DNA of 64,000 nt, taken from the NCBI GenBank assembly GCA_030324005.1, contig JARDVH010000106.1, positions 54,426,341-54,490,340 of the forward strand, written 5' to 3'. A program made the position numbers and the translations under genes. Positions 21,400 through 23,282 of this stretch are shown here, piece by piece. Under the pieces are notes generated by a model. That model did not search any database. It worked only from the letters and a program-made list of their open reading frames with translations, and was not told the DNA's origin. This DNA is from Negaprion brevirostris. Taxonomy: Eukaryota. How positions within the stretch are numbered: position 1 is the first letter of the stretch; each line of letters opens with the position of its first letter.

Positions 21400-21518
21400 G
21401 TTTACACCCTACGAGTGGTACAATCCCCACCCGTGCAATCCTGACTCAGATGTGGTGGAAAACAATTTTACTTTACTAAATAGTTTCTGGTTTGGAGTTG
21501 GAGCTCTCATGCAACAAG
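21400..21518 (+). CDS. GRIK1: GRIK1 M2 pore-loop exon with the Q/R site: (R)[39 protein letters not shown](G)
   Basis: Not in the ORF track; found by manual translation. Acceptor ccacag (21398-99), donor AG|gtacat at 21519; 119 bp, in frame with the flanking exons. RFTPYEW is GluK1-type (GluK2 is RFSPYEW). Confidence 0.97.
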
Positions 21519-23060
21519 GTACATAGGTCACACATCATTCCTACACACATCCCACAGTGTGCTGGGGGCCTTTGTGCTTGGTAAGCTCCATCCTCAGCAA
21601 CTATGCTCCATACTGTAAAACCTGGCTGACATTGACAAGAATAATGGTGAATAGTGCTGAGATAGGTACATTTTATTGGTGCAAAGATACATTCAACTAT
21701 GAAAAATAACAATGGATTCCTGGCCGAGGAAAGGTAGGATTTAAAACTGAAAATGCAACATGTAGAAGATGTGTGACTTAGAGTACTAAAGGTTAAAGAG
21801 GATTCAAGTAATTGTAATACCTGGTGAGGGTCAAGTTTCATTTGGCGCAAAAAATTTTGAGTACATCACTGACTGATATGAAAATTATGTATTGATACAC
21901 GCCAAAACTTTCTGATGGGAGCATGCCACATTTGCGCCTCTGTTTACATGGCTTAGTCAAATAGGTCAAGTTTTAAGTGGGGGTAAAAGTTTCATATGGA
22001 CAGAACTTCAATTTTAAATGAAATGAAATGTTTTGTTATGAATGTATTTGAGTAAATAGCAACCAAATATGATCCATGAAAGAATATGAATGAAAAATGT
22101 GGACATTTCCTTATATATCTTGGCTGTAAGGAAATAACTTCATTTCAGTTCTTCCCAAAATTTGATATTTTAGTTAACATCTGTCTGAAAACTACCATAA
22201 ATATCATAGTTACAATATACCATAAACAGAGAGAATAGCAGTTACCCTGAAACATAAGATATGCAACTACTGTTGAAAAGTTATTTAACACATGCAGTCC
22301 CTGCAACTGTAGATATATTTCAAATTCTTCATAAATGACATGGGAATCTCTGACTCGAAAGTAGAGTTCCCATGATTTTTAGGAGGTTTTTGTGGCTCTT
22401 CCTCCACACTGTCTGTCATAATTTTGGAGAAATACCCGCAGAAGCTCGTCACTATTGAGTTTTAACACTTCAGCTCAGCTAGGACAGGTTACCTGAGAAA
22501 ATTGACCTCTGACAGGCAATCAAATAATTTTCAGCCCGTTTAGCTCCCATCATCCAATATATAAAAAATACCTAACAGCCCGTCAGCAATTAAAGAAGGA
22601 AAAAGATGGGTTAATATTTTAGATGTCAACCCTTCATCAGAACTCCTGTATATAAAATAGAATCTCGATATTATGAGTGAAAACGGATTCACAGGACTTC
22701 AAGCAAATAGACAATGTGTAAAACAGGAATAAGATCACTTTTGATATTGTAAAGTGGAACTACAAAAATAATAATAAACATTATGTTTTGGGCTTGTATT
22801 TTACTGAAAATCTCAACAGCTTATGTTAGTGCTGCAAATTGTCAGCAAGCTATTATCTCTCATTCCAGTATTCTTAATTGTTTTCTTGCCATCAGAATAC
22901 ATTTGCAATGACAGCTAAGAAGTAATTAAACTAAGTTTAGCCTGCACCCCCGCTGAACAATACTTCTGCAACCACAAACTAAGTCTCACTGGAATTAACA
23001 GCATGTTGTAGTTTCAGGCATTTCTGGTCTGTTAAGGCTGAATGAAAAGAACATTATCAT

Positions 23061-23234
23061 CAGGTTTTACAGTATAGCATCTGTGTGTTTGTGATGGTTG
23101 CATGTGTATGTGTGTTGATGAAAGCTAGTTTATTTTCCTAACCAGGGTGGCTGGTAAACTGAATGTATAGCAGCCATGCATGTCAAACACGTTGGAGTTT
23201 ACCATCATCCACAGCAAACTGTGGGATGTCGTGT
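23061..23234 (+). promoter_or_regulatory. Intronic helices extending the Q/R editing duplex (partners at 21543-21624)
   Basis: caggttttacagtat (23061-75) is the exact reverse complement of 21610-24; tggagtttacc (23193-203) pairs with 21580-90 (one G:U); 23212-34 pairs with 21543-64 (one mismatch, one bulge). The helices are in correct nested order. Confidence 0.85.
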
Positions 23235-23248
23235 CTGATAGTTGCCAC

Positions 23249-23282
23249 TACCTTGGATACATGACAGTCAGCCCCAACCAGG
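23249..23282 (+). promoter_or_regulatory. Editing-site complementary sequence (ECS) for the GRIK1 Q/R site
   Basis: taccttg pairs with caaggta (21515-21521), catga with tcatg (21507-21511), and cagccccaaccagg with tctggtttggagttg (21486-21500). About 1.73 kb downstream of the exon, similar to the roughly 1.9 kb spacing known in mammalian GRIK1/GRIK2. Confidence 0.85.

Follow-up and report, generated by a model that had tools for sequence, protein, structure and literature searches.

The pore-loop (M2) exon of GRIK1 in the shark Negaprion brevirostris is predicted to pair with its downstream intron in a long-range duplex of five nested helices. This duplex very likely represents the structure already known from Q/R editing of kainate receptors, made up of an intronic editing-complementary sequence (ECS) and an inducer stem. 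The complementarity of the arms, their nesting, and the sharing of the ECS, helix 2, the core of helix 0 and a downstream exon mimic (the anti-ECS) with GRIK2 of the same genome are directly observed. More tentatively, we propose that GRIK1 and GRIK2 inherited in common an ancestral two-state RNA switch, in which the ECS would clamp the exon and its splice sites and the exon mimic would then strip the ECS off.

The gene, its pore exon and the Q/R codon

The window (the whole 64,000-nt stretch of DNA analysed) contains five kainate receptor exons, all on the + strand. Two of these exons, compared with solved structures, gave their top score with GluK1 (153.9 versus 152.3 bits for GluK2, and 148.1 versus 134.9), and for the exon at 45229-45456 there is 100% identity with GRIK1 proteins from two rays and from great white, basking, cat and smooth-hound sharks. 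Judged from these matches, the gene is elasmobranch GRIK1, in agreement with an initial interpretation of the DNA from its letters alone (the sequence-only reading), which had recognized GRIK1 in a shark-like genome.

Replacement of Gln by Arg at the Q/R site lowers the calcium permeability of kainate receptors. The Q/R adenosine of the shark exon lies 6 nt ahead of the splice donor, the offset also found in human, and A21513 is the predicted edited base, editing of which would convert Gln to Arg. The codon is CAA in shark GRIK1 versus CAG in human GRIK1, human GRIK2 and GRIK2 of the same genome; a 3' A is a less favourable neighbour for ADAR. Among the 120 database proteins compared, none in which the motif was found has R at the Q/R position, these being mostly genome predictions and hence uninformative on editing. 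The intron after the M2 exon extends from 21519 to 26106 and contains both the ECS and the anti-ECS (Table 1).

Table 1. Positions of the exons, duplex arms and downstream elements of GRIK1 in the window
Feature	Positions	Strand	Remark
GRIK1 M2 (pore-loop) exon, 119 nt	21400..21518	+	
Q/R codon, genomic CAA (Gln)	21512..21514	+	from the sequence
Helix 0, 5' arm: last 8 nt of upstream intron (acceptor) and first 7 exon nt	21392..21406	+	
Helix 0, 3' arm (acceptor-masking sequence)	23324..23338	+	
Helix 1 (Q/R stem), 5' arm: exon end and splice donor	21486..21521	+	
ECS (helix 1, 3' arm)	23249..23287	+	A23259 opposite C21512
Helix 2 (editing-inducer-like stem), 5' arm	21543..21567	+	
Helix 2, 3' arm	23209..23234	+	
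Helix 3, 5' arm	21579..21590	+	contains A21583, A21584
Helix 3, 3' arm	23193..23204	+	
Helix 4, 5' arm (15-bp perfect core 21610-21624)	21603..21625	+	
Helix 4, 3' arm	23060..23080	+	
Acceptor-like pyrimidine tract with AG, immediately preceding the anti-ECS	23465..23482	+	moderate in GRIK1 by a crude score
Exon mimic (anti-ECS), complementary to the ECS	23486..23526	+	
Next GRIK1 exon (M3)	26107..26324	+	closes 4,588-nt intron

A predicted five-helix duplex covering both splice sites

The sequence-only reading had described four nested helices (helices 1-4). All four reappeared at the same positions, both when the two arms were co-folded, with most pairs at a probability of 0.9-1.0, and when minimum-energy folding was applied to the whole native stretch 21360-23420 (2,061 nt). 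Their duplex energies were -31.6, -33.1, -16.1 and -25.0 kcal/mol, respectively, and the distance from the ECS adenosine to the Q/R site was 1,746 nt. The duplex had also been called complete, a description that did not survive, as an acceptor helix and a competing element had been missed. The acceptor helix, helix 0, comprises 15 bp with a probability of 0.97, is present in the native fold, and was the top-scoring of 453 tiles. With helix 0 on the acceptor and helix 1 enclosing the donor, the predicted fold leaves neither splice site of the edited exon exposed.

Further short long-range helices appeared at low confidence within the loop of the native fold (21747-21826 with 22890-23017). A consensus-like donor at 23348-23353, just behind the ECS, was the joint best of 273 in GRIK1.

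Pairing beyond chance

The exon end and proximal intron paired with 23181-23300 at -92.9 kcal/mol, compared with -50.7 +/- 5.7 for shuffled sequences; the native value was attained by 0 of 500 dinucleotide shuffles, and 23181-23300 was the top tile of 215 downstream. When the whole window was scanned (1,811 tiles), a G-rich repeat tile at 42966 gave -90.4. The Q/R stem by itself (-32.5) ranked first of 449 GRIK1 tiles, and chance tiles in GRIK3 were stronger (best -36.7). Duplex energy was dropped as a stand-alone test because G-rich tiles score equally well; energy alone being a weak test, the case for the duplex rests on nesting and conservation. Chance complementarity would be in keeping with single helices that are unexceptional by energy, but is very hard to reconcile with five nested helices in order, the shuffling result, the sharing with a paralog and the human editing at the same offsets (see below), and we consider it highly improbable.

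Self-BLAST of the window gave 73 repeat hits, none of which includes either arm of the duplex, and a search of the same genome with 23190-23300 found two places only, the GRIK1 locus and the GRIK2 intron, which confirms the earlier claim that the arms are unlike the repeat families of the window. A repeat-derived (SINE) editing duplex was ruled out, as the arms are not inverted repeat copies. A scan of 20000-26000 against Rfam gave one weak match far under the cut-off (24.6 of 75 bits).

The GRIK1 introns also carry a dispersed SINE-like family, present in both orientations in copies that are 70-83% alike (13106-13381, 16583-16803, 18529-18749, 38738-40834, 48875-49198, 53381-53683 and 61421-61935), which could form further weak duplexes.

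The duplex in the paralogs GRIK2 and GRIK3

We compared GRIK1 with two loci of the same genome that, from their exon motifs, we take to be GRIK2 and GRIK3. In GRIK2, which lies on the minus strand of its contig, the ECS is at intron +357..+400. It is identical to the GRIK1 ECS at 38 of 39 nt, the exon ends agree at 42 of the last 43 letters, and all 29 pairs of the Q/R stem are the same in both genes. The sole difference in the exon end and the sole difference in the ECS oppose each other next to the edited base (21514 and 23257): at the third letter of the Q/R codon, GRIK1 has an A-A and GRIK2 a G-G opposition.

The ECS adenosine of GRIK2 is 372 nt from the Q/R site in this shark, compared with about 1.87 kb in mouse (1,885 nt for the GluK2 ECS) and 2.05 kb in human. 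Because the distance is so short here, a long ECS distance is non-essential, and the spacing of about 1.9 kb that the sequence-only reading had put forward is no defining trait. The shark GRIK2 gene is thus a naturally compact substrate for experiments.

Similarity extended to other helices in varying degree. In helix 2, 17 pairs are the same in the two genes, two show one-sided changes, one shows a two-sided change, and 5 of 25 occur in one gene only; the covariation, seen in two sequences, is thus thin, and the Q/R stem and the anti-ECS core do not vary at all. Helix 0 has the same 8 core pairs in GRIK2 and is longer there on the intron side, with its counterpart at approximately intron +444..+460; this site ranked second among 498 tiles and forms only when the exon-ECS stem is enforced. 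No counterpart of helix 4 was found in GRIK2. GRIK2 has specific inner helices of its own, intron +76..+107 with +278..+301.

In the paired part of the exon, one of 12 synonymous-capable codons differs between GRIK1 and GRIK2; the exon that follows has 32 such differences in 64 codons (Fisher p = 0.0096). GRIK3 differs from GRIK1 and GRIK2 at 3-4 of the 12, and therefore part of the exon constraint is not ECS-specific. Six arm queries against the GRIK3 intron (29,379 nt, of which 7,383 are N) yielded no hit in five cases and a weak hit to a pyrimidine tract in the sixth. The last 19 exon letters of GRIK3 are those of GRIK2, despite an intron (a quarter of which is N) in which we found no ECS.

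Because the ECS is common to GRIK1 and GRIK2 and none was found in GRIK3, the structure is likely to be older than the GRIK1/GRIK2 duplication. An origin in the jawed-vertebrate ancestor, as first suggested, would if anything be too young, given an ECS common to the paralog. The accompanying suggestion that the structure may still be under selection gains support, at the level of the paralogs, from their identity and from the low synonymous divergence of the paired exon part. The arms are strongly conserved between the paralogs and relative to the published human and mouse contexts.

Later gene conversion would also make the two ECSs nearly identical, and would undo the dating before the duplication. 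The identity is indeed extreme, both in the intron (38/39) and in the exon (42/43 letters). However, GRIK1 and GRIK2 lie on different contigs, and the identity is limited to the paired blocks, with unalignable sequence between them. Moreover, helix 2 of shark GRIK2 is nearer to that of mouse GluK2 than to that of shark GRIK1, which makes recent conversion unlikely: compared by eye with the mouse sequence in the portion of PMC5654063 covered, the upper arm is the same over 27 letters bar one insertion and the lower arm agrees at 25 of 30, whereas the upper arms of shark GRIK2 and GRIK1 agree at 19 of 25. We accordingly regard conversion as improbable, and common inheritance from before the duplication as the better reading.

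Correspondence with edited sites in mammals and fishes

Several adenosines of the shark duplexes correspond in offset or spacing to sites edited in mammals. Human GRIK1 is edited at intronic positions +70 (38%) and +71 (26%) from the Q/R site, according to the part of the PMC8257547 supplement covered; shark GRIK1 has A21583 and A21584 at precisely these two offsets, within helix 3, and the helix-3 arm matches the human context published there at 11 of 12 letters. Likewise, the portion of the PMC4053846 supplement covered lists two edited ECS adenosines 27 nt apart in human and mouse GRIK2, and A+340 and A+367 of shark GRIK2 have this same spacing. The same material records editing of the zebrafish GRIK2 Q/R site (86%). 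As for the inducer stem, helix 2 of shark GRIK2 matches that of mouse GluK2, disruption of which lowered editing from 23% to 5%, as given in the part of PMC5654063 covered; helix 2 of shark GRIK1 is the paralogous stem. These published data establish in vivo use of the editing fold for relatives, not for the shark itself. Taken with the helices, the shuffling result and the sharing with GRIK2, the human offsets support the original interpretation of the structure as an ADAR-type ECS duplex for the Q/R site.

Some further correspondences concern neighbouring elements. A rare human GRIK2 donor (6 reads) lies 67 nt after the second edited ECS adenosine, its coordinates having been converted via the Q/R offset, and a donor-like site in shark GRIK2 (intron +435) is also 67 nt after A+367. 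The context of another edited adenosine in the human GRIK2 intron (+93) is found at +88 from the Q/R site in shark GRIK2. The mouse GluK2 fold, as machine-read from part of PMC5654063, appears to show helix 0, the garbled text making this weak evidence; helix 0 may be part of the published upstream stem of mouse GluK2.

It is conceivable that the duplex now mainly controls splicing of the pore exon, by delay or skipping, with the CAA codon little edited in sharks. Both splice sites lie in helices, the codon context is unlike that of mammals, and human GRIK1 skips the pore exon at about 1% (14 reads). Such a role seems unlikely to be the main one, however, as the Q/R stem retains mismatches of the edited GRIK2 type, the ECS base facing the third codon position has changed with the codon (A-A versus G-G), and the zebrafish GRIK2 site is edited. 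Against editing by the duplex also stands the low editing of shark GRIA2, 20-33% in brain, reported in the part of PMC8659423 covered, a paper that contradicts itself.

An exon mimic downstream of the ECS

The sense-strand matches in an intron-intron BLAST of GRIK1 against GRIK2 amounted to two blocks, the ECS (E 4e-18) and the anti-ECS. The latter block joins 23489-23521 to GRIK2 intron +692..+725 (85% over 34 nt, 36.5 bits, E 5e-4), compared with at most 31 bits in 52 kb from other loci. The anti-ECS resembles the exon end, yet pairs with the ECS without the mismatches of the exon: the C-C and C-A oppositions and a 2-nt bulge are all mended. Of all tiles scanned (465 in GRIK1, 447 in GRIK2), it is the top ECS partner in each gene, above the exon itself, with pairing energies of about -42 (GRIK1) and -40 (GRIK2) kcal/mol versus -34 and -36 for the exon, and the two genes agree in 13 of the 14 core pairs. 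Against the whole window the anti-ECS ranked third of 8,098 tiles, behind two G-rich tiles, so that the modelled strength of pairing is by itself no more than suggestive. A chance origin is made unlikely by the combination of sharing, order and a top rank as ECS partner in both genes.

A growing GRIK1 transcript was predicted to be in the exon-ECS state when it ended at 23290, 23345 or 23480; ends at 23530, 23600 or 23800 gave the ECS-competitor state instead. The margin in favour of the competitor state in GRIK1, 1.2 kcal/mol for the ensemble of a shortened construct and 4.5 kcal/mol for the minimum-energy fold of the native sequence, is within model error; GRIK2 prefers the flipped state by 5.8 kcal/mol.

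Because an acceptor-like site precedes the anti-ECS, a poison-exon role is a live rival: the element may be a cryptic, stop-containing cassette exon, or else a remnant of the duplication from which the ECS arose, rather than a competitor, the pairing serving mainly to mask its acceptor. In GRIK2 this acceptor is the best of 154 candidates and donor-like sites follow 80 and 98 nt on, but in GRIK1 it is only 10th of 124. Inclusion of the anti-ECS would, from the translations, introduce a stop or a frameshift in both genes; its reading frames are nevertheless alike no further than the nucleotide block dictates. Masking would fit the flipped GRIK2 fold, in which the end of the ECS covers the anti-ECS acceptor, and a rare 44-nt cassette in the corresponding intron of human GRIK2, supported by 13, 8 and 27 junction reads and lying 525-568 nt beyond the edited ECS adenosine, is a possible counterpart. 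The likeness to the exon end would be expected of a tandem copy; on the other hand, the differences from the exon mend ECS mismatches, and a neutral relic would not keep them in both paralogs. This explanation is a possible one, although we lean against it. An in-frame alternative pore exon at the anti-ECS was ruled out by the stops or frameshifts in both genes.

In the open literature (subscription papers and bioRxiv supplements being outside its scope) we found no published competing element, no chondrichthyan GRIK ECS and no report of the GRIK1/GRIK2 ECS identity, and the main text of a published list of paralogous conserved non-coding sequences, as far as covered, has no GRIK entry.

A proposed order of events

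In the mechanism that we propose, the nascent RNA would zip up helices 4, 3 and 2, followed by the Q/R stem and the acceptor helix. Helices 4, 3 and 2 would bridge the 1.4-1.7 kb loop and serve as ADAR-loading stems, and pairing of the ECS with the exon end and donor would leave A21513 within imperfectly paired sequence. ADAR on the stable stems would edit A21513 before splicing, which would meanwhile be held back; helix 0 is predicted to mask the acceptor, so that both splice sites would be held during editing. The least certain step is the last: 23486-23526, made approximately 230 nt later, is predicted to draw off the ECS, which would release the exon and limit how long editing can go on. 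ADAR loading on helices 2-4 with ECS pairing across the Q/R site is a step in which the models and the comparison with known substrates give us considerable confidence; release by the anti-ECS, suggested by folding models, is plausible rather than probable.

The duplex itself would extend a known mammalian element to cartilaginous fishes and is no surprise, since published work had already led one to expect such editing sites to be conserved in fishes. What the paralog comparison contributes is a likely date, earlier than the separation of GRIK1 and GRIK2, and evidence that the length of the loop is not fixed. Of the two, the duplex and the anti-ECS, the latter would be the more important. How the exon is released from the ECS for splicing is an open question; a second one is why editing of GluK1 and GluK2 is partial and developmentally regulated, while that of GluA2 is nearly 100%. 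Should the two-state switch be true, a window timed by transcription would explain the partial, tunable Q/R editing of kainate receptors. Editing at sites with an intronic ECS, GRIK2 included, declines as splicing efficiency rises, according to the part of PMC6724681 covered. A conserved competitor in cis, if real, would be a handle testable by one deletion in an existing GluK2 reporter.

Comparison with known systems

Herb et al. in 1996 reportedly described ECS-dependent Q/R editing of GRIK1 (GluR5) and GRIK2 (GluR6), and may already have noted the likeness of the ECSs. The shark duplex shares with the rodent and human GRIK1/GRIK2 Q/R duplexes, as described in the parts of PMC5654063 covered, the exon, the site, the ECS in the following intron and a three-stem layout with inducer stems; it differs in that shark GRIK1 has a CAA codon with an A-A opposition. 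The mammalian GluK1 fold of Daniel et al. 2017 (PMC5654063, same parts) spans about 530 nt and so does not include the distal ECS, and a competing exon mimic is undescribed in these parts. The editing inducer elements of GluA2, GluK2 and Gabra3 described there likewise set a stable intronic stem beside a shorter, imperfect edited stem, whereas in shark GRIK1 three stems are predicted in series across 1.4-1.7 kb.

The exon-intron hairpin of the GRIA2 Q/R site also has an intronic ECS that covers the donor, and the portion of PMC3553965 covered traces this substrate to chondrichthyans, with one cartilaginous fish included. It is a different structure, of short range compared with the GRIK1 duplex, and its origin is considered, in a review (PMC9479739, in part), to be at least partly separate from that of GRIK1/2. 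At an AMPA-receptor exon of the shark genome, an 854-codon open frame was ruled out as a retrocopy, as it consists of the exon, a LINE-like frame and an N gap. The segment that follows the exon in frame is presumably a LINE-like reverse-transcriptase fragment, the whole arrangement lying at 1447-3210 of that locus.

The Drosophila paralytic transcript, with its ECS and donor-site complementary sequence (DCS), offers a further parallel: in the part of PMC4299485 covered, an intronic sequence likewise hides a splice site and tunes editing. The paralytic DCS masks the donor, whereas in shark GRIK1 both donor and acceptor would be covered, and an extra element is predicted to oppose the editing fold.
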